64,000 nucleotides of DNA from Candidatus Omnitrophota bacterium (GTDB lineage: Bacteria; Omnitrophota; Gorgyraeia; Gygaellales; Profunditerraquicolaceae): assembly GCA_026387355.1 (NCBI GenBank), contig JAPLLW010000007.1, positions 42,198-106,197 on the forward strand, given 5' to 3'. The notes beneath the pieces were generated by a model. That model saw only the letters and a program-made list of their open reading frames with translations. It was not told where the DNA came from and did no database searches. Position 1 is the stretch's first letter. The number at the start of each line of letters is the position of its first letter. The position numbers and the translations under genes are program-made. Shown piece by piece: positions 4,215 to 13,255 of this stretch.

Positions 4215-6953
4215 TTATTTCTTTTTGTCTTTCAGCGCTGCCTGAGCTGCTGCTAAATTCGCAATTGGAACGCGAAATGGCGAACAGCTTACGTAATTCA
4301 TTCCAACCTTATGGCAAAATTCCACTGATTTAGGTTCTCCACCGTGTTCACCGCAGATACCAACTTCTAATTTCTTATTGGTTTTTCTGCCGCGTTCAAT
4401 ACCGATTTGGATTAACTGGCCGATACCTTCCTGATCGATGCTTTGAAATGGATCTTCGGGGAGAATCCCTTTTTTAATATACTCAGGTAAAAAACCTCCG
4501 ATATCATCCCTGGAGAATCCAAAGCCCATCTGGGTCATGTCATTGGTGCCGAATGAGAAGAACTGCGCTACTGTTGCTAGTTTGTCTGCAACCAGTGCTG
4601 CGCGCGGGATCTCAATCATTGTTCCGTACATGGTTTTAATGTTCTTTAGATTGTATTTCTTTAAAACCTCTGCATAAACCTGTTTATAAATAACTAGTTG
4701 ATCCTCAAGTTCTTTTACATCGCAGACAACCGGGACCATGATTTCCGGGTATGGTTTTTTACCATCCTTGATCAGTTCAGCTGCTGCTTCAAATATAGCG
4801 CGAATCTGCATAGCGCTTACCTCAGGATAAGTTACCCCTAAGCGTACGCCGCGGTGGCCCATCATCGGGTTTGATTCGTGCAGTGCTTCAGCTCTCCTAG
4901 TTAGCTCCTCCATGTTAATATTAAGATCTTTGGCCAACTCTTCAAGCTTTGCTTTCTCGCGCGGAACAAATTCATGTAGAGGCGGATCAAGTAGGCGGAT
5001 AACTACAGGAAATCCGTCCATTGCTTCAAGTGTCCCTTTAATGTCTTTTTTGACATACGGGAAGAGCTGATTGATTGCGTTGGTTCTTTCTTCGAGCGTG
5101 TTTGAGACAATCATTTTGCGTAAAAGAAACAAAGCTTCATCAGAACCTTTTCCGTAGAACATATGTTCTGTTCTAAATAAACCAATACCTTCGGCTCCGA
5201 ATTGACGCGCCTTAGCAGCATCTTCCGGGGTGTCAGCATTAGTACGAATCCCTAGTTTCTTGATTGTACTGCAAATCTTCAAGAATCCAGAAAGCATCAT
5301 ATTTTCTTCGGAAGCATCCATCATAGGAAGCTTACCTATATATACATTGCCCTTAGTCCCGTTTAAGGTAACCCACTCCCCTTCTTTAAGGGTTTTACCA
5401 TCCACGTTGATCTTCTTGGCCCCTAAGTCAACATGCAAGGAACTGCATCCTACAATACAGCATTTACCCCAACCACGGGCTACCAGGGCTGCGTGTGAGG
5501 TCATACCGCCTCTGGCAGTCAAAATTGCCTGGGCAACGCGCATACCTTCAACATCTTCAGGGTTCGTCTCTTCGCGCACCAGTATTACCTGTTTTCCTTC
5601 TTTTGCCCATGCTACGGCATCAGCAGCTGAGAAAACAATCTGTCCACATGCACCACCCGGACCAGCAGGTAAACCCTTTACAAATGGTTTTTGCGTCAAT
5701 TCAACCTTAGGGTCAATGATCGGATGCAATAATTCATCTAACTGCGCAGGTGTTACGCGCATTACAGCTTCCTCTTTTTTAATTAATTTCTCTTTAATCA
5801 TATCCATGGCCATGCGCACTGCTGCCGGACCATTGCGTTTTCCTACGCGGCACTGCAACATAAAGAGCCTACCTTTTTCAATGGTAAACTCAATATCCTG
5901 CATATCGCGGTAGTGATTCTCTAGGCGAAGTTGTATTGCAAAAAGCTCTTTATAAATCTGAGGCATTGCTTTCTCAAGCGTTACCAGATCTTTATTATGC
6001 GTTGATTGCGAGAAGGTATTAATCGGTGCCGGGGTGCGGATACCTGCAACTACATCTTCACCCTGGGCGTTGATTAAATATTCTCCGTAGAAATGCGGGT
6101 CGCCGTTTCCGGGGTTTCTGGTGAAGGCAACTCCAGTAGCTGAAGCATTACCCATATTTCCAAAGACCATCGTCTGCACATTTACAGCTGTTCCCCAGGC
6201 ATCAGGGATCCCTTCGATGCGGCGATAGCTTATCGCGCGCTTTCCGTTCCAAGAGGAAAATACTGCGCCAATTCCTCCCCAAAGTTGTTGTATGGGTTCA
6301 TCGGGAAATTCTTTACCTAAAACTTCCTTAATCCGTGTTTTAAAACTTTTACATAATTCTTTTAAATCAGCAGCGGTTAAATCCGTATCTAGCTTGCTAC
6401 CTCTTTTTTGTTTTGCTTCATCCATGATGCGTTCAAGCTGCTTACGGATACCCATATCATCCTTAGCTTCAATTCCCGCAGCTTTCTCCATAACTACATC
6501 AGAGAACATCATAATCAACCTGCGGTAGGCATCATAAACAAAACGCTCATCGCCATTAGCTTGTTTGATTAATCCGGGGATAGTTTTTTCGGTTAAGCCG
6601 ACATTTAAAACAGTCTCCATCATACCGGGCATAGATTTACGCGCGCCGGAACGAACAGAGACTAAGAGTGGATTATTTGCGTCACCGAATTTTCTATCCA
6701 TGAGCTTCTCAACTTGAGCCAATGCTTTATTTACCTGTGTTTTAAGTTCTTTAGGATAAGACCGTTTGTTAGCATAATAATAGACACATACATCAGTGGT
6801 TAAAGTAAATCCCGGAGGAACAGGGAGTTTTAGATTTTTATGCCCTGCCATCTCGGCTAGATTTGCGCCTTTACCTCCTAAGAGGTTCTTCATACTTTCG
6901 TTTCCATCAGCTTTCCCTCCGCCGAAGGAGTAAACGTACTTTTTGTTACCCAT
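4215..6953 (-). CDS. ppdK: Pyruvate, phosphate dikinase
   Basis: Full-length (912 aa) match to PPDK architecture. N-terminal GGKGANLAEM, catalytic His domain (GGMTSHAALVARGWG) and PEP-utilising C-terminal TIM-barrel domain. Confidence 0.95.
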   Translation of the reverse strand: MGNKKYVYSFGGGKADGNESMKNLLGGKGANLAEMAGHKNLKLPVPPGFTLTTDVCVYYYANKRSYPKELKTQVNKALAQVEKLMDRKFGDANNPLLVSVRSGARKSMPGMMETVLNVGLTEKTIPGLIKQANGDERFVYDAYRRLIMMFSDVVMEKAAGIEAKDDMGIRKQLERIMDEAKQKRGSKLDTDLTAADLKELCKSFKTRIKEVLGKEFPDEPIQQLWGGIGAVFSSWNGKRAISYRRIEGIPDAWGTAVNVQTMVFGNMGNASATGVAFTRNPGNGDPHFYGEYLINAQGEDVVAGIRTPAPINTFSQSTHNKDLVTLEKAMPQIYKELFAIQLRLENHYRDMQDIEFTIEKGRLFMLQCRVGKRNGPAAVRMAMDMIKEKLIKKEEAVMRVTPAQLDELLHPIIDPKVELTQKPFVKGLPAGPGGACGQIVFSAADAVAWAKEGKQVILVREETNPEDVEGMRVAQAILTARGGMTSHAALVARGWGKCCIVGCSSLHVDLGAKKINVDGKTLKEGEWVTLNGTKGNVYIGKLPMMDASEENMMLSGFLKICSTIKKLGIRTNADTPEDAAKARQFGAEGIGLFRTEHMFYGKGSDEALFLLRKMIVSNTLEERTNAINQLFPYVKKDIKGTLEAMDGFPVVIRLLDPPLHEFVPREKAKLEELAKDLNINMEELTRRAEALHESNPMMGHRGVRLGVTYPEVSAMQIRAIFEAAAELIKDGKKPYPEIMVPVVCDVKELEDQLVIYKQVYAEVLKKYNLKNIKTMYGTMIEIPRAALVADKLATVAQFFSFGTNDMTQMGFGFSRDDIGGFLPEYIKKGILPEDPFQSIDQEGIGQLIQIGIERGRKTNKKLEVGICGEHGGEPKSVEFCHKVGMNYVSCSPFRVPIANLAAAQAALKDKKK

Positions 6954-6974: not shown

Positions 6975-8318
6975 CTAAATAAGTTTGTCGGACAAATATT
7001 TTATTAGATTCTCAACTGGGATCCTGTCTTGAAGCATTGTGTCGCGATTGCGCACTGTCACCTGTTTGTCCTCCAGGCTCTGCACATCAACCGTAACACA
7101 GAAAAGCGTGCCTACCTCATCCTGTCTGCGATAAAGCTTACCGATTGCACCTGTGTCATCATAAACCGTAACCATTATTTTTTTCAAATCCCGGCAGATT
7201 TTCTTAGCTAATTCCACAATCTCCGGTCTGTTTCTTAAAAGCGGCAACACTGCTACTTTTGTCGGCGCAAGGTCCTTATGTATCTTTAGGACTACGCGCG
7301 TATCTTCTTTGACTTTCTCTTCGTTGTAAGCATCAGCTAAAAATGCTAATAGAGCCCGATCTACCCCGCCGGAAGGTTCAATAATATACGGATAAAACTT
7401 TTCTTTAGTGCTATCTTCAAAAAAGGTTAGTTCTTTTCCGCTATGTTCTGCGTGTTGTTTTAAATCAAAGTCCGTGCGGTTGGCTACACCCTCTAATTCC
7501 GACCACCCGAAAGGAAAGTTATATTCTATATCTGTGCAGCTGGCAGCATAATGTGCAAGCTCATCTTTTGCGTGCGGCCTTAATCTTAAATTATTTTTGT
7601 TTATTCCTAAATTAAGATACCATTGATAACGGGCATCTACCCATTCGTTGTAGGCTTTTTCTGCATCAAGCGGTTTTACAAAGTATTCAATCTCCATCTG
7701 TTCAAATTCGCGTGTACGGAATGTAAAATTACCCGGGGTGATTTCATTGCGGAAAGATTTTCCTATTTGAGCCAGGCCAAAAGGAAGCTTGGGGTGTCTG
7801 GAATCCAGGATATTAGCGAAATTTACAAACATACCTTGTGCAGTTTCCGGACGCATATAGATTTCATTTCCTGATTCTTCTACCGGTCCTTGGTAAGTCT
7901 TAAACATAAGATTAAAGGGCCTGCTTTCGGTAAGTTTCCCAGCGCATTCAGGGCACTTATTCTTATCTTTGAGGTCTTCGGATTTAAAACGTTTTCTACA
8001 AGACAAGCAGTCACTTTTTAGATCAAAGAAATTCTGCACATGTCCGGATGCCTCCCAAACCTTGGGGTGCATAAGAATAGCCGCATCCATTCCCATGATA
8101 TCGTAGCGCTCATAAACATTCGCCTTCCACCATGCACGCTTTAAATTATTCTTAAGTTCAACTCCGTAAGGCCCATAGTCCCAGGTATTGCTTAATCCTC
8201 CGTAGATATCCGAGGATTGAAATATAAAGCCCCTGCGTTTACAGAGTGAAACAATCTTTTCCATCAAGTTATCGCTCATGAGTCTTTCATTTTTAGCACA
8301 GTTTTGGATAAAAATCAA
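6975..8318 (-). CDS. glyQS: Glycine--tRNA ligase (dimeric class II type)
   Basis: IFQSSDIYGGLSNTWDYGPYG motif and class II motifs. The true start is probably the internal MSDNLMEK, around 8279. Confidence 0.9.
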   Translation of the reverse strand: MIFIQNCAKNERLMSDNLMEKIVSLCKRRGFIFQSSDIYGGLSNTWDYGPYGVELKNNLKRAWWKANVYERYDIMGMDAAILMHPKVWEASGHVQNFFDLKSDCLSCRKRFKSEDLKDKNKCPECAGKLTESRPFNLMFKTYQGPVEESGNEIYMRPETAQGMFVNFANILDSRHPKLPFGLAQIGKSFRNEITPGNFTFRTREFEQMEIEYFVKPLDAEKAYNEWVDARYQWYLNLGINKNNLRLRPHAKDELAHYAASCTDIEYNFPFGWSELEGVANRTDFDLKQHAEHSGKELTFFEDSTKEKFYPYIIEPSGGVDRALLAFLADAYNEEKVKEDTRVVLKIHKDLAPTKVAVLPLLRNRPEIVELAKKICRDLKKIMVTVYDDTGAIGKLYRRQDEVGTLFCVTVDVQSLEDKQVTVRNRDTMLQDRIPVENLIKYLSDKLI

Positions 8319-9040
8319 GCATTTTGCTCGCCAGGGCTGAGTGTGGAGATAATCGTTATAACTTTATTTAAATCCAGGGTGCACCTTGCGTCTCTTATGT
8401 AGACCTTAAAGAAGTCCCCTTCTTTATTAACTACACTACAGTCAAAATAATTAAACTTAGGGCTAATTGTGTAGTTAATGAAGCCGGCTTTATCTTCCAT
8501 CTCAAACTGAATCATCTTGACTAAGTTCTGGTTTCCTAAGTCAGGGGTAAAGATACTCTTCATAATTACAAAGAATGCGTCATTAAGATTATTAATTTGC
8601 GAAACTCTGGAGAACATCATGCTCGTAAGGAATTTATAGTTATCGTTGATTCCTAACTTTATTAGTTGGGGGAAAAGTTTACAAAAGTACCCTGGTCCTT
8701 GATGCAGGAGGTAGATTACAGGTTCGCCATTTCGGAACTTCTTTTTCTTATAATAAGGACGCTTAATTAATTCCTGGACAACTTTAAATCCTTTAGGTAT
8801 GTAGATCTCGACCTTGGGGAATTTATAGGGGATACAATCTTGAGCATAGCTCTTATCCGGTTGGAAAGTAGTTACTTCTTTTTCCGGTACTTTGCATAAT
8901 ATAGGAATAGTTTGACAATTTCCAATACCTGATTCAACGTAATTTGTTAAAATCTTTGGCCCGGCAAACTTTATTACAAAAACTATAGCCAGTGTAAAGG
9001 CTACTAAGGTAGCTAGCCTCTTTACCCATTTCTTTTTCAT
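8315..9040 (-). CDS. Hypothetical membrane-anchored protein
   Basis: N-terminal signal/anchor helix. No recognisable domain. Confidence 0.45.
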   Translation of the reverse strand: MKKKWVKRLATLVAFTLAIVFVIKFAGPKILTNYVESGIGNCQTIPILCKVPEKEVTTFQPDKSYAQDCIPYKFPKVEIYIPKGFKVVQELIKRPYYKKKKFRNGEPVIYLLHQGPGYFCKLFPQLIKLGINDNYKFLTSMMFSRVSQINNLNDAFFVIMKSIFTPDLGNQNLVKMIQFEMEDKAGFINYTISPKFNYFDCSVVNKEGDFFKVYIRDARCTLDLNKVITIISTLSPGEQNA

Positions 9041-9876: not shown

Positions 9877-11151
9877 TTACTTAAAGAATCTTTGTAGATA
9901 CCCAATTATTGGGGATGCTATAAGCATGATAGTTAGTGAAATTAATATTACAGTTGTTGACCAGCCTACGGTGTTTTGAAAAGCATTATTAGTGTATTTG
10001 CCCATAATCTTCTTATTATTTACCATAGTAATCATCGAGATTAGCACTACTGGTAAGAGCATGGCATTGATTATCTGCGACCAGATAGTAATAGCAATCA
10101 GCGGTGCGTTTGGTATGAGTATTATGATAACCGAGGTTACTATAATGAATGTAAACAAGGAATAAAATTGCGGGGCTTCATTGATTTTTTTATTTATCCC
10201 TGCCTCAAAACCAAATGCCTCACATACATAAAAAGCTGTAGCTAGGGGTAAGATGGTTGCGGAAAATACCGAGGCAACAAATAAGCCAAAGGCAAATAAC
10301 TGTGAAGCAAAGATACCGGCAAATGGCTTAAGCGCTATCGCAGCATCTCGAGCTTCGGTTATTACTATTCCATTTACGTGTAGAGTTGCAGCGCAGGCAA
10401 TGATAATAAATGACGCAACTACGATAGTAGCGACGCATCCAATGATTACATCCCAGATGACAAATTTATAATCCTCGATCTTGATCCTCTTCTCTATTAC
10501 TGCTGACTGCATATAGAATTGCATCCATGGGGCTACGGTGGTTCCTACGATTCCCAGAACCATCCCTAAGTACTCTTTATTTATTTGCATAGTTGGGTTA
10601 ACAAAGGAAGTTCCGATCTGTTGCCAGTCGGGTTTGGATAGAACCGCGGATACTATATAAGATAAAAGGCAAAAACTAAAAAGCAAAAATATCCTTTCGG
10701 AGATTTTGTAATCCCCTTTAACCACGAGTATCCAGACTCCGATTGCAACCAGTGGTACAGAGATATATTTGGATACTCCAAATATATCCATACTTCCGGC
10801 AACCCCGGCAAATTCTGTGGCAGTATTTCCGATATCCGCGGCAACTAAACCTAGAAAAATAAAAAATGTGATTTTTACGCCGAAATTCTCTCGGATTAAA
10901 TCAGCTAGTCCTTTACCGGTTACTATTCCCATCCTAGCGTTCATCTCTTGAACTACCGCGAGGATTATAAAAGATGGGATCATTGTCCACAATAATTTAT
11001 ATCCGTATATAGCTCCGGCTACCGAATAAGTGGTGATACCGCCTGCATCGTTATCAACGCTGCCTGTAATAATGCCAGGTCCAAGGATGGCCAAAAAGAT
11101 TAATAGATTCCTCATTGTGGGGTTTTCTTTAAGTTTTTCTATGAATTTCAT
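9877..11151 (-). CDS. NRAMP-related transporter with non-canonical metal site (NRMT-like, putative Mg2+ transporter)
   Basis: 11-12 TM protein. TM1 aligns to the NRAMP GPG…DPGN…AGA…GY…LLW block, but DPGN is replaced by D-A-G-G. TM6 TVMPH is replaced by TVAPW. The Met-to-Ala and Asn-to-Gly swaps are those described for NRAMP-related Mg2+ transporters. Confidence 0.7.
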   Translation of the reverse strand: MKFIEKLKENPTMRNLLIFLAILGPGIITGSVDNDAGGITTYSVAGAIYGYKLLWTMIPSFIILAVVQEMNARMGIVTGKGLADLIRENFGVKITFFIFLGLVAADIGNTATEFAGVAGSMDIFGVSKYISVPLVAIGVWILVVKGDYKISERIFLLFSFCLLSYIVSAVLSKPDWQQIGTSFVNPTMQINKEYLGMVLGIVGTTVAPWMQFYMQSAVIEKRIKIEDYKFVIWDVIIGCVATIVVASFIIIACAATLHVNGIVITEARDAAIALKPFAGIFASQLFAFGLFVASVFSATILPLATAFYVCEAFGFEAGINKKINEAPQFYSLFTFIIVTSVIIILIPNAPLIAITIWSQIINAMLLPVVLISMITMVNNKKIMGKYTNNAFQNTVGWSTTVILISLTIMLIASPIIGYLQRFFK

Positions 11152-12437
11152 TGCGATTCCTCTGTTTCTTTACGTATTTGATGAAATACTGATTCAAATG
11201 CGTCCTTCATTGTAATGATACCTTGAATCTTTCCAGATTTATCAACCACTGGAACCACGGTAAAGTCATATTTATAGAAGATTTCAGCAACGTCTTTAAT
11301 GCTAGCATTTACTTTAGTTTTGGCTACGCGTTTACGCATAAACTCAGAGACTAATTTTTCAGGCGCAACAGTGAGCAATTGCGGTAAGGTAATTACTCCG
11401 ATTAACAGGTCTAGGTCGTCTAAAACATAAATATAATAAATATTCTTATTTTTCTTGGTCTCTTTTCTTATTTTTTCTAAAAGAACGCCGGCAGTAATGT
11501 TGTGTTTGGTAGTCATAAATTCCGTATTCATGATACTACCCGCTATATCATGGGCGTGTCCTAAAAGGCTGGTAATTTGCGCCACCTTCTCTTGGGGTAG
11601 GCGCATAAATATGGCATTCATCCTCTTTTTAGGAAGCTGTGAAAACAAGTCAACTACTTCATCAATTGCCATCTCATTAATAAAATCAACAAAGAGTTTC
11701 TGATCCAGTAATTCAGCTACCTGAATGCGTATTTTTAAAGGTAGCTCTTGGATGGTACTTGCGGCAGTGGCATTATCCATAGACTTGAGGATATTTATTC
11801 TCTCCTCATTTCCTAAGTCAACAAGGATATCTGCAAGATCGGCAGGATGCAATTCCGCAAGTCTTGAATGGTGCACCTTTAGCGCTAGTGCGTCATTTTG
11901 TGCCGCATTGTTTATAGGCTGGACAAATTTCCAGGATATTAGCCTGTCTTCAACTTGGTATGAAGATAGCAGCTTAACTATAAATTCAAATATTTTAATA
12001 CAACCAAGCCTGCGAATTAGCCCGGTTACTCCTATATCCATGTGCACAACCCAAAGATTTAACCCTTCCCTAAGGAGATGCAGGTCATTTATTCTAACTA
12101 CTTTTGAGCCGGATATATCAACGATCTGCTTATCCCAGAATGTGTCCTTAAGTAAAATCTCATTTTCTTCTAACTTGTAGTTTTCTTTAATGGATTCGCT
12201 GGTGTTTTCTACAAAAATACCCTTATCTTCCGTAAACATCTTAACGAATCTCCAAGGAAGGTAGGCTTTCTTACCCCTTCTGGTACGTATAATTAAGCTG
12301 GTTACTTTAGGATACATTTCTTTAAATGTTACGGTGAGGTCTAAAACGCGGCCTAATCTCTTGCCTGTAGCAGAATCAATAACCGGTAAGTTAATTATGT
12401 AATAAAGGAAGATAAATTTCTTTGGTAGATTGTTCAT
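11148..12437 (-). CDS. Stand-alone MgtE cytoplasmic module: PRC-barrel + MgtE N-domain + CBS pair, no TM domain
   Basis: Strong similarity to the MgtE sensor region (LHPADLADIL…, DIAGSIM, NIYYIYVLDD…, YDFTVVPVVDKSGKIQGIITMKD). The protein ends right after the second CBS with no hydrophobic pore domain. Its stop overlaps the downstream transporter start by 4 nt. Confidence 0.75.
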   Translation of the reverse strand: MNNLPKKFIFLYYIINLPVIDSATGKRLGRVLDLTVTFKEMYPKVTSLIIRTRRGKKAYLPWRFVKMFTEDKGIFVENTSESIKENYKLEENEILLKDTFWDKQIVDISGSKVVRINDLHLLREGLNLWVVHMDIGVTGLIRRLGCIKIFEFIVKLLSSYQVEDRLISWKFVQPINNAAQNDALALKVHHSRLAELHPADLADILVDLGNEERINILKSMDNATAASTIQELPLKIRIQVAELLDQKLFVDFINEMAIDEVVDLFSQLPKKRMNAIFMRLPQEKVAQITSLLGHAHDIAGSIMNTEFMTTKHNITAGVLLEKIRKETKKNKNIYYIYVLDDLDLLIGVITLPQLLTVAPEKLVSEFMRKRVAKTKVNASIKDVAEIFYKYDFTVVPVVDKSGKIQGIITMKDAFESVFHQIRKETEESQ

Positions 12438-13255
12438 CAGTTTAAGGTGTCTTTAAGCCGTTTATGTTTTAAAAACTCAAAATGTCCGGCTAATTCATTT
12501 AAATCTAGATCCGTAGCATCAAAATCAGGACCGTCAGAGTATTTAAAGACTTTATTTTCAGTTGTTTTGCAGCTGCAGGTTCCGCAAATTCCTGTAGTAT
12601 CAACTAGGACTGGGTCCAGGCTTAGAATAGTTTTAATCTGATTCTCTGCGCTAAATTCTGCGACCTCTTTCATCATCGGGATTGAACCCATGCAGTAAAT
12701 TAATTTAGGATACTGGGTATGAGTAGATTTTTCGATCACCTGAAAAAGATCCTTAAGCGTGTTTATGGCTTTGTCAGTAATAAGCAGCTCACTAGAAACC
12801 TCGCGTATTTTATCCTCAAGTAAACACCTGGGCTTATCTTGTGTTTCGATTATCGAGATTATCCTGTTGCCGTGTGCCTTAAGGGCTTTTAATATAGGAT
12901 AAGATCCAGTTAGTCCGTTATCGTCTGCGATAAAATACACTTCTCCTAGTTTTTCTATCTTGCTCATTTGCCCGAGGGGGCCAAAAAGCTCACTTATAGC
13001 ATCCCCTTCGTTGATTCTTTCAAGATTCTTCGCAGTGTAATCGGTCCTGCGGAAAATAATATTAATCTCGCCATTATCTGCGTCCCAGTCCGCAAGCCTT
13101 AAAGGTATGCGTTCATTTGTATCTTTAGTGATTATGGATATAAATTGTCCGGGTCTAATCTTTTTGACCAAATCTCTCGCCTCTATGCCGATAGAGACAA
13201 ATTCCTTATTTAAATTAGTCACCTCAATTACCTTGAACATGCTCTTCTTCGACAA
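12437..13255 (-). CDS. PyrK-like FAD/[2Fe-2S] oxidoreductase subunit (ferredoxin-NADP reductase fold)
   Basis: RIPLRL (RxPxS-like FAD motif). C-terminal cysteine cluster CMGSIP…GICGTCSC resembling the PyrK/sulfide dehydrogenase [2Fe-2S] motif. NAD motif degenerate (DDNGLTGSYP). Confidence 0.55.
   Translation of the reverse strand: MSKKSMFKVIEVTNLNKEFVSIGIEARDLVKKIRPGQFISIITKDTNERIPLRLADWDADNGEINIIFRRTDYTAKNLERINEGDAISELFGPLGQMSKIEKLGEVYFIADDNGLTGSYPILKALKAHGNRIISIIETQDKPRCLLEDKIREVSSELLITDKAINTLKDLFQVIEKSTHTQYPKLIYCMGSIPMMKEVAEFSAENQIKTILSLDPVLVDTTGICGTCSCKTTENKVFKYSDGPDFDATDLDLNELAGHFEFLKHKRLKDTLN

Follow-up and report, generated by a model that had tools for sequence, protein, structure and literature searches.

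An NRMT-type transporter gene overlapping the gene for a pore-less MgtE-like cytoplasmic module: an Omnitrophota copy of a widely conserved pairing

The window analyzed here is a whole stretch of 64,000 nucleotides from a Candidatus Omnitrophota bacterium (contig JAPLLW010000007.1). On its minus strand lie two adjoining genes, one for a transporter of the SLC11/NRAMP family and one, directly upstream of it, for a soluble protein that we call the partner. The two genes and their junctions are as follows.

9877..11151, minus strand: NRMT-type SLC11/NRAMP transporter gene, an ORF of 424 aa (Pfam Nramp; PDB match 7qia)
11148..12437, minus strand: partner gene (NRMT-associated protein), an ORF of 429 aa, soluble, with a tandem PRC barrel, MgtE_N and a CBS pair
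11148..11151, minus strand: ATGA, the 4-nt overlap of the partner stop codon and the NRMT start codon, read from the sequence
11158..11162, minus strand: GAGGA, a Shine-Dalgarno-like motif 6 nt upstream of the NRMT ATG, within the 3' end of the partner gene
12435..12439, minus strand: TGATG junction, where the stop codon of the upstream gene for a 272-aa FAD/NAD-binding protein overlaps the partner ATG by 1 nt

An earlier note, made from the sequence alone, had described both reading frames and the ATGA overlap, and these are confirmed in position, strand and length, as are the peptide blocks it quoted from the translations (NDAGG, GTTVAPW, DIAGSIM, IYYIYVLDD, and YDFTVVPVVD). The GAGGA motif is a putative ribosome-binding site for NRMT. 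Overlapping junctions join the pair into a longer string of genes in a housekeeping setting, namely apbE, the FAD/NAD protein, the partner, NRMT, and panB. Because the upstream stop codon overlaps the partner ATG, there is no space for a leader or riboswitch, and Rfam at its gathering threshold returned only tRNAs across the window, with no riboswitch, the M-box (RF00380) included. With only tRNAs from Rfam and no intergenic leader, riboswitch control of the window operon was rejected. Promoter and terminator scans from 6.5 to 17.5 kb gave site numbers not above those of shuffled sequence, and are uninformative on the operon limits.

The transporter belongs to the NRMT clade of SLC11/NRAMP, and is not an MntH. 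Pfam Nramp (PF01566) matches it over profile positions 1–356 of 357 (E = 1.4e-95), and the best solved match is EleNRMT from Eggerthella lenta (7QIA; E = 2.3e-109, 369 bits, 44% identity), compared with at most 100 bits for any MntH, DMT or NRAT chain in the PDB search (MntH at E ~1e-27). The NCBIfam MntH model scores 159 bits, under its cut-off of 430. The earlier assignment to NRMT, to which an MntH with an intact metal site had been the stated objection, therefore stands. An identical protein is present in the database (P0121). Two stretches of the transporter are metal-site motifs.

11038..11049, minus strand: helix-1 metal-site motif D35-A36-G37-G38, aligning with EleNRMT D55 to G58 and invariant in our alignment (A1)
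10525..10542, minus strand: helix-6 metal-site motif T204-T-V-A207-P-W209, aligning with EleNRMT T224, A227, and W229 and invariant in A1

The canonical NRAMP motif of helix 1 is DPGN, as against DAGG in the window transporter, and that of helix 6 is A-x-x-M-P-H. In the alignment, D35, G38, T204, A207, and Q359 of the window transporter correspond to EleNRMT D55, G58, T224, A227, and Q379, and the two proteins have clade, fold, and metal-site residues (D, G, T, A, Q) in common. The first histidine of helix 6b is replaced by Trp (W209), likewise in EleNRMT, and the position of the second is Met214 in the window and Asn in EleNRMT. The window transporter thus combines the fold, D-x-G-G, T-x-x-A-P, the loss of the helix-6b histidines, and a closer relation to NRMT than to MntH, the features by which NRMTs are recognized. 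Of the substitutions around the metal site, the Met-to-Ala and Asn-to-Gly swaps had been read correctly beforehand, whereas the Mg2+-relevant Ala-to-Thr swap (Thr204) had gone unflagged. Judged from the alignment, Thr204 itself is the NRMT-specific, Mg2+-relevant change, since canonical NRAMPs have Ala at this position and the equivalent EleNRMT residue is T224, whose mutation to Ala abolishes Mg2+ transport (PMC8806188). The roles of the metal-site residues in EleNRMT were described by Ramanadane et al. 2022 (eLife, PMC8806188), and the same work describes a LeuT-fold transporter that has no proton coupling, carries Mn2+ as well, and is active in proteoliposomes without a partner. The words “channel” and “pore”, used for NRMT in the earlier note, are in this light loose.

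The partner is a pore-less MgtE cytoplasmic module, soluble, and not an MgtE channel. Its parts, from the N-terminus, are listed here.

12210..12419, minus strand: first PRC-barrel domain, aa 7–76
11916..12161, minus strand: second PRC-barrel-like domain, aa 93–174, with two inserted helices
11865..11912, minus strand: linker between the PRC module and the MgtE-like module, aa 176–191, predicted disordered (pLDDT <50)
11550..11852, minus strand: MgtE_N helical domain, aa 196–296 (PF03448, E = 1.1e-19)
11190..11543, minus strand: CBS pair, aa 299–416 (Pfam CBS match and 2yvy alignment)

Pfam places PRC at aa 9–76, MgtE_N at aa 196–296, and CBS at aa 363–416, and finds no match to the MgtE membrane domain PF01769 in the partner. 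The earlier picture of a pore-less MgtE module behind an N-terminal PRC domain is borne out by these matches, and all four families named for the two proteins (Nramp, MgtE_N, CBS, and PRC) were recovered. The partner is a PRC-barrel protein by profile (PF05239) and by its PRC beta-barrel fold, and the second barrel holds the most distinctive conserved block of the family, with the invariant signature D102, Q104, D107, G110, K112, R115, N117, D118, G136, R143, and W169. An identical database protein (P0001) from a Candidatus Omnitrophica MAG is annotated only as “CBS domain-containing protein”. The best solved relative is the cytosolic domain of Thermus thermophilus MgtE (2yvy, E = 1e-28), the top Foldseek matches are all MgtE cytosolic domains, and the N domain and CBS pair of T. 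thermophilus MgtE (2YVX, 2YVY) align with partner residues 191–416. Neither the partner nor its complex with NRMT has a solved structure in the PDB, where the best matches in sequence and fold are MgtE. The NCBIfam mgtE model (TIGR00400) gives 134 bits against a cut-off of 232.75, covering only profile positions 24–252 of 450. In comparison with MgtE, the partner is without the membrane pore and without a clear plug helix, and has an extra tandem PRC barrel. A full-length AF2 model has a pTM of 0.44, and its domain arrangement is therefore unreliable.

No hydrophobic window of 19 residues occurs anywhere in the partner, its C-terminus lies 13 residues past the CBS pair, and at least 120 homologues, among the matches listed, end at about the same length. 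That the pore might be encoded elsewhere as a frameshifted continuation had been raised earlier as a way in which the pore-less reading could fail. No such continuation, and no MgtE membrane-domain homologue, was found among window ORFs of at least 80 aa, using a query that agreed with the Thermus MgtE sequence. With no pore in these ORFs and the same end shared by the orthologues, a frameshifted or separate MgtE pore was rejected.

Several Mg2+-site residues of MgtE are retained in the module. D259 and D263 of the partner MgtE_N domain correspond to D91 (Mg4 site) and D95 (Mg6 site) of T. thermophilus MgtE (TtMgtE), and D391, F392, D412, and E415 of the partner CBS pair to D226, F227, D247, and D250, so that the Mg4 and Mg6 aspartates, D226, F227, D247, and an acidic residue at D250 are all kept in the window. 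Taking the list of MgtE Mg sites from PMC5882242 and counting residues over 75 partner orthologues, we find Asp at the D91 position in 70 and at the D95 and D247 positions in 75 each, and Glu or Asp at the D250 position in 61. The conservation of the Mg4 and Mg6 residues suggests that Mg2+ may be the ligand of the partner. At the Mg5 position (D226 of TtMgtE) most orthologues have Asn, and at the Mg7 position (E59) the window partner has Ser. The plug-helix residues E258 and D259, which touch the pore domain in MgtE, are not clearly kept in the poorly conserved tail of the soluble partners.

The pairing is conserved well beyond the Omnitrophota. We surveyed NRMT loci from Omnitrophota, Bacteroidota, Ignavibacteriae, Bacillota, Spirochaetota, Acidobacteriota, Verrucomicrobiota, Fibrobacteria, and Bdellovibrionales, and among the 77 that have upstream DNA, a partner lies directly upstream on the same strand in 76. 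Full-length partners (411–475 aa) account for 74 of these; one is cut by a contig end (L015) and one is truncated (L072). The junction between partner and NRMT ranges from −10 to +22 nt in 59 of 74 related loci, with longer spacers at 12 junctions and three larger apparent overlaps that are due to over-extended NRMT ORF starts. In a reverse scan, seeded solely on partner sequence motifs, two of three in the PRC module, NRMT was adjacent in 70 of 73 partner loci (66 co-directional and 4 convergent), leaving 3 without NRMT. The co-occurrence that the earlier reading depended on is thus kept in both directions, and adjacency of partner and NRMT is close to obligatory, at >95% both ways over about ten phyla.

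These counts bear on whether the partner acts on NRMT at all. It could instead be a CBS protein that senses Mg2+ or a nucleotide, has another target for its PRC tandem, and is co-expressed with NRMT only within a low-Mg2+ response; PRC barrels are known in the ribosome maturation factor RimM and in archaeal division proteins. Two-way adjacency above 95%, mostly of overlapping or near-touching genes, is however the pattern of physically interacting products, and membrane-anchored variants (described below) set the module at the membrane. We regard an independent function as unlikely.

Transcriptional control differs among lineages. An M-box precedes the partner gene in 5/6 Bacillota loci with an NRMT 67–71% identical to that of the window, and in 0/7 examined loci from other phyla. 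The M-box ties these Bacillota operons to Mg2+. Among Clostridium NRMTs with 70–71% identity, the M-box is present in the C. manihotivorum and C. ljungdahlii loci and absent in C. arbusti. A riboswitch was found neither in L109, L114, and L130, within the long spacer between partner and NRMT, nor in the loci with a membrane-bearing form of the partner. Because the M-box is confined to Bacillota among the loci examined, its absence in the window says little, and this weakens one argument for a manganese system, in which Mn2+ would be both the main import of the NRMT and the ion that the partner senses. Such a system would also agree with the Mn2+ transport of EleNRMT (PMC8806188) and with the homologue of A. 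capsulatum, which has a partner but no M-box and behaved mainly as a Mn2+ transporter (PMC4072509). On the other hand, T204, the residue specifically required for Mg2+ in EleNRMT, is kept, and the window NRMT is 67–71% identical to Bacillota orthologues under M-box control. A manganese system at this locus seems to us rather improbable.

The gene pair itself has been described. Shin et al. 2014 (PLoS Genet, PMC4072509) reported that “most group members” of NrmT adjoin a gene for a homologue of the MgtE N-terminal cytoplasmic domain, depicted the gene neighbourhood (Fig. S5), and speculated about a role of the fragment in “cytoplasmic feedback regulation of transport” or “metal chaperone activity”. 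The window shows the same kind of partner, with homology to the MgtE N domain and CBS, no membrane domain, and nrmT adjacent. Compared with their NrmT operons (C. acetobutylicum CA_C0685; A. capsulatum ACP2976/ACP2977; PMC4072509), gene order, domain content, and feedback hypothesis are the same; the window copy differs in its Omnitrophota origin, in having neither M-box nor leader, and in its place, with overlapping junctions, within a housekeeping string. Co-expression of ACP2976/2977 gave no better rescue of a Mg2+-transport mutant, and NRMTs acted without a partner in B. subtilis (PMC4072509). That assay sought improved rescue, not inhibition (PMC4072509). For the A. capsulatum transporter an apparent preference for Mn2+ was reported (PMC4072509), so the ligand could vary by lineage.

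The window unit is therefore an Omnitrophota copy of a two-gene pairing known since 2014, and not a new kind of system. The statement in the earlier note that no precedent had been described was wrong, as the pairing had been reported, illustrated, and partly tested (PMC4072509), and the sensor-gating mechanism it proposed is the hypothesis already published at that time. The earlier note was right on the anatomy, but the 2014 description refutes the novelty, and we give next to no credence to a modular two-protein system of Mg2+ uptake that had not been described before. Some features of the partner do appear to be absent from the searchable literature. The term “PRC” has 0 occurrences in PMC4072509, where the partner is a “small protein” and its N-terminal tandem PRC barrel of ~175 residues is not mentioned, and EleNRMT was studied alone, as a monomer, with no discussion of a partner in PMC8806188. 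We found no paper linking “PRC-barrel” and “MgtE”, and the partner is not discussed in the later NRMT, SLC11, and Mg2+ transport papers that we examined. In the searchable literature we did not find the conserved N-terminal tandem PRC barrel with its invariant polar signature, the ~600-aa relatives whose MgtE-like membrane domain lacks the pore aspartate (several of them upstream of NRMT), or the single-membrane-helix end of the partner in close relatives of EleNRMT.

As a rule, a bacterial route of Mg2+ entry has a cytoplasmic Mg2+ sensor of its own, and to our knowledge NRMT is the one Mg2+ importer without a known gating mechanism. CorA and the self-gated Mg2+ channels, where a cytoplasmic sensor closes electrogenic Mg2+ entry, may serve as an analogy only, as the sensor of CorA and MgtE is in the pore chain, whereas in the window it would be a separate polypeptide beside a LeuT-fold carrier. 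The residues for proton coupling are absent from the window transporter as they are from EleNRMT, so that Mg2+, and probably Mn2+ too, would be taken up driven by the membrane potential. From established Mg2+ physiology, a Mg2+ uniporter that is electrogenic and has no gate would probably overload the cell with Mg2+. An NRMT without proton coupling would therefore need a brake, and the conserved partner is the obvious candidate, with one negative co-expression test from 2014.

On balance, we lean towards the reading that the partner senses cytosolic Mg2+ and restrains the adjacent NRMT, in a post-translational negative feedback. The partner would be a soluble descendant of an MgtE channel that kept the N domain and CBS pair and lost the pore, and cytosolic Mg2+ would be sensed where the N domain meets the CBS pair, through the sites that were kept. 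At sufficient Mg2+, the partner would undergo a conformational switch and restrain the transporter beside it; its effect on NRMT would be inhibitory, probably through physical contact. NRMTs transport in B. subtilis and in proteoliposomes with no partner present, which fits a regulator, and not an essential subunit. Speaking against a brake are the null result of co-expression, the Asn at D226 in most orthologues, the Ser at E59, the plug-helix residues that are not clearly kept, the AF2 pTM of 0.44, the apparent Mn2+ preference in A. capsulatum, and the lack of an M-box in the window.

Free cellular Mg2+ is millimolar, which leaves little rationale for a Mg2+ chaperone. This, the function of NRMTs on their own in B. 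subtilis and liposomes, and the failure of co-expression to improve rescue make it doubtful that the partner is a positive accessory factor, either a metal chaperone or buffer taking Mg2+ (or Mn2+) from the inner vestibule of the transporter, or a factor for assembly or stability. Chaperone activity was nonetheless the alternative of Shin et al. (PMC4072509), the acidic residues of the Mg2+ sites are conserved, and the close translational coupling suggests that the two proteins are made in matched amounts. With regard to the feedback brake, our surveys sharpen the question, through the close-to-obligatory pairing, the tandem PRC barrel that is always present in the partner, with its invariant polar patch, the pore-dead relatives, and the tail-anchored partner in close relatives of EleNRMT, and they point to specific constructs and mutants with which regulation could be tested directly.

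Membrane-bearing relatives of the partner suggest where such a module may have come from. Rare PRC-MgtE_N-CBS relatives of ~600 aa (P0329, P0362, P0378, P0372, and others) share the tandem PRC signature, the N domain, and the CBS pair with the partner, and retain an MgtE-like 5-TM domain that is absent from the window partner. In 4/6 informative cases they are directly upstream of NRMT. The idea of the PRC barrel as an NRMT-specific docking module is weakened, as the barrel is also on the membrane-bearing forms, two of which are not beside an Nramp gene. The ~600-aa relatives have lost the pore residue D432 as well as N329 and N332, and have kept the plug-helix residues E258 and D259. Where the NRMT is 75% identical to EleNRMT, as in a pair from the Eggerthellaceae, the partner has one membrane helix at its C-terminus; the window partner, in contrast, is fully soluble. 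As predicted from sequence, these membrane-anchored variants would place the partner module at the membrane.

It is possible, though we hold this more tentatively than the feedback brake itself, that the soluble partner is the end point of a series that began with a PRC-bearing MgtE, and that it now gates in trans, in response to Mg2+, an NRMT of unrelated fold. A PRC-bearing MgtE would first have come to adjoin NRMT; its own pore would then have decayed, with loss of D432 and of the GGNTGNQ asparagines while the plug-helix Mg2+ sites were kept; a stage as a membrane-anchored regulator would have followed, and finally the membrane domain would have been shed entirely. The patch of the second PRC barrel (D-x-Q-x-x-D...K-x-x-R-x-N-D) may under this series be a docking site or an extra ligand site. 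If the series is true, it would provide the first case of a carrier other than MgtE under an MgtE-type sensor, and EleNRMT would so far have been studied minus its natural regulator. In a rough NJ tree (single outgroup, no bootstrap), the ~600-aa relatives branch near the root, a position that is consistent with this order of events.

The transporter gene and the gene immediately upstream of it are confirmed as a further instance of the published NrmT/MgtE-like unit. The earlier note knew of no precedent for the pairing, a claim that does not survive the literature: Shin et al. 2014 (PLoS Genet, PMC4072509) defined the group of NRAMP-related Mg2+ transporters (NRMT or NrmT) and published the pairing, with the adjoining MgtE-like gene frequently co-transcribed under an M-box riboswitch and split in two in C. 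acetobutylicum. The sensor-plus-pore reading is reasonable, but it is the 2014 hypothesis and no new system. In the same study, co-expression of A. capsulatum ACP2976 and ACP2977 did not improve rescue, and a PRC barrel is nowhere mentioned (PMC4072509). Our literature search for "PRC-barrel" with "MgtE" found no paper combining both, and the partner, as we call the MgtE-like protein, is undiscussed in the later NRMT and Mg2+-transport papers checked.

ORF reading places both genes where the note had them, and all the sequence blocks it quoted occur in the two proteins, which are already in NCBI under generic names:

9877..11151, (-), NRMT ORF, 424 aa
11148..12437, (-), partner ORF, 429 aa

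The partner stop overlaps the NRMT start (ATGA), with a GAGGA motif 6 nt 5' of the NRMT ATG, and the partner ATG shares one base with the stop of the preceding gene (TGATG), which leaves the pair without a separate leader. Pfam bears out the proposed domains, with Nramp in the transporter (E 1.4e-95) and PRC (aa 9-76), MgtE_N (aa 196-296) and CBS (aa 363-416) in the partner.

The note was right to assign the transporter to NRMT and not to MntH. Among all PDB chains its best match is the solved Eggerthella lenta NRMT, EleNRMT (7QIA, E 2.3e-109, 369 bits), MntH, DMT and NRAT chains all score 100 bits or less, and the NCBIfam MntH model, with a cut-off of 430, gives 159 bits. The metal site defined in EleNRMT (D55, G58, T224, A227 and Q379; PMC8806188) is kept whole, as D35, G38, T204, A207 and Q359. 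The helix-6 motif TVAPW had been read correctly as NRMT-like, except that its Thr, which replaces the canonical Ala specifically in NRMTs, went unflagged; in EleNRMT, which transports Mg2+ and Mn2+ without proton coupling, T224A abolishes Mg2+ transport (PMC8806188). Helix 6b has Trp (W209) in place of the first proton-pathway His, as in EleNRMT; at the second position the window has Met214 and EleNRMT has Asn.

That the partner lacks a pore also stands. In an alignment to Thermus thermophilus MgtE (2YVY, E 1e-28), residues 191-416 of the partner match its N domain and CBS pair; Foldseek ranks MgtE cytosolic domains highest for the AlphaFold model (mean pLDDT 78), and the NCBIfam mgtE model covers only profile positions 24-252 of 450, under its cut-off. 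The chain stops 13 residues past the CBS pair, with no Pfam match to PF01769 and no hydrophobic 19-residue window across the whole protein, and no MgtE membrane domain is encoded elsewhere in the window. The N-terminal extension of ~190 residues is found throughout the surveyed partners and is thus a core part of the family. A linker at aa 176-191 is predicted to be disordered in the AlphaFold model. The extension includes a second PRC barrel:

11916-12161, second PRC barrel, partner aa 93-174

This barrel carries a polar signature (D102, Q104, D107, G110, K/R112, R115, N117, D118, G136, R143 and W169; K at 112 in the window) that is near-invariant over 84 cluster representatives, membrane-bearing forms included, and may mark a so far unrecognised site for a ligand or for docking. 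D33 of the first barrel is likewise conserved in soluble and membrane-bearing forms.

The proposed co-occurrence proved to be conserved from both sides. When an NRMT alignment was scanned against one genome per species, at least 574 loci matched. Among the best 80 of these (NRMT 64-86% identical), a partner homologue lies immediately upstream on the same strand in 76 of the 77 with upstream DNA; 74 are full-length (411-475 aa), one is cut by a contig end (L015) and one is truncated (L072). The sole locus without one, in 5 kb searched upstream, is from a Spirochaetota MAG (L007, NRMT 5001-6269). Among the phyla covered are Omnitrophota, Bacteroidota, Ignavibacteriae, Bacillota, Spirochaetota, Acidobacteriota, Verrucomicrobiota, Fibrobacteria and Bdellovibrionales. 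Junction lengths run from -10 to +22 nt in 59 of 74 loci; three apparent overlaps beyond that stem from NRMT ORF starts extended too far, and the spacer is longer in 12. The truncated partner, in a Bacteroidales MAG (L072, 3684-4580), is a 298-aa ORF (query residues 83-294) with a 408-nt gap to NRMT; the ORF may have been frameshifted or misassembled, or the gene may be split as reported for C. acetobutylicum. In Clostridium manihotivorum a further NRMT copy lies close by (L030, 8284-9582 (-)), and a Bacteroidales MAG has a second partner copy (L047, 7814-9115 (-)), much as C. acetobutylicum is reported to have two NrmT paralogues.

Starting from the partner, a metagenome scan seeded solely on three partner motifs, two of them in the PRC module, found NRMT downstream and co-directional in 66 of 73 loci with room, convergent in 4 and absent in 3 (L135, L139 and L160, within 3 kb). 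The convergent genes lie tail to tail on high-GC metagenome contigs, with gaps of a few to ~40 nt, and a response-regulator-like gene lies beyond NRMT in at least three of the four:

L121, 416-2954
L138, 2983-5538
L155, 2155-5094
L157, 834-2654

Three related contigs (L109, L114, L130) have unusually long spacers from partner stop to NRMT start, ~410-455 nt, in which no Rfam family matches.

Relatives with a membrane region emerged when 1.84 billion cluster representatives were searched with only the tandem PRC module, a search that gave 374 clusters at E <=1e-10, mostly of 410-450 aa. Seven are ~600 aa, with PRC, MgtE_N and CBS followed by an MgtE-like 5-TM domain (called MgtE, PF01769, by Pfam in 5/7); an NRMT-type Nramp lies directly downstream in four of six with informative context and not in two. 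The loci at which ~600-aa relatives lie directly upstream of NRMT-type Nramp genes are:

L163, 1752-4802
L164, 4001-7259
L165, 1189-4447
L167, 4001-7071
L168, 1347-4417
L169, 143-3445

Aligned to the verified Thermus sequence, all seven keep the plug-helix Mg2/Mg3 residues E258 and D259, except for Gln at E258 in cluster P0310, and all seven have lost the pore aspartate D432 with N329 and N332, so that, by sequence, the domain looks like a pore-dead MgtE in a membrane-anchored version of the partner. Six of the seven are basal to the soluble partners in a rough neighbour-joining tree (TtMgtE root, no bootstrap). On human-gut contigs (L148-L150, L152, L153, L156; e.g. L148, 3019-4368 and 4384-5706), an NRMT 75% identical to EleNRMT has a 449-aa partner 15 nt upstream that closes with one hydrophobic helix at the C-terminus (WGQFAITLAVFIVLMIPYTFFVL), absent from the other 144 of 150 partners; EleNRMT itself was probably studied without its natural partner. 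These relatives and the shared signature are compatible with an origin from a PRC-bearing MgtE by decay of its pore, and with a partner acting at the membrane, any contact with NRMT being putative. Together, the membrane-bearing relatives, tailed partners and PRC signature make partner function more testable.

The TtMgtE Mg2+ sites listed by Maruyama et al. 2018 (PMC5882242) were scored on 75 partner orthologues:

Mg4 D91, D in 70/75, window D259
Mg4 D247, D in 75/75, window D412
Mg6 D95, D in 75/75, window D263
Mg5 D250, E or D in 61/75, window E415
Mg5 D226, N in 57/75, window D391
Mg7 E59, D in 61/75, window S227

By this count the sites through which the N domain is clamped to the CBS pair are kept, a requirement for a Mg2+-dependent conformational switch. 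An M-box lies 5' of the partner gene in 5/6 Bacillota loci and in 0/7 from other phyla, which ties the orthologous Bacillota operons to Mg2+; Rfam finds none in the window. The partner is not needed for NRMT transport (PMC8806188, PMC4072509), as would be expected of a regulator more than of a subunit. Knowledge of CorA and MgtE leads us to infer that an uncoupled electrogenic Mg2+ carrier would need a brake.

The pair is part of a string of housekeeping genes that share its direction and often overlap, in the order ybeY, recO, a panE-like reductase, apbE, a 272-aa FAD/NAD protein, partner, NRMT, panB, a 241-aa protein and glyS. Two other Omnitrophota loci (L002, L003) share the order apbE, partner, NRMT, panB without the 272-aa gene; beyond Omnitrophota, conservation is limited to the pair. 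Scans for consensus promoters and terminators did no better than on shuffled sequence. Other features of the window are:

12437-13255, (-), 272-aa sulfide/dihydroorotate-dehydrogenase-like FAD/NAD-binding protein (NCBIfam PRK06222, 216.5 bits against a 220 cut-off), overlapping at both junctions, with apbE and partner
8315-9040, (-), 241-aa protein without Pfam match whose N-terminus includes a hydrophobic segment, overlapping both panB and glyS and kept in the same position in L002 and L003
52551-52930 (-), 2782-2855 (-) and 61812-61885 (-), five tRNA genes, the sole Rfam matches in the window, three of them clustered at 52.5-52.9 kb
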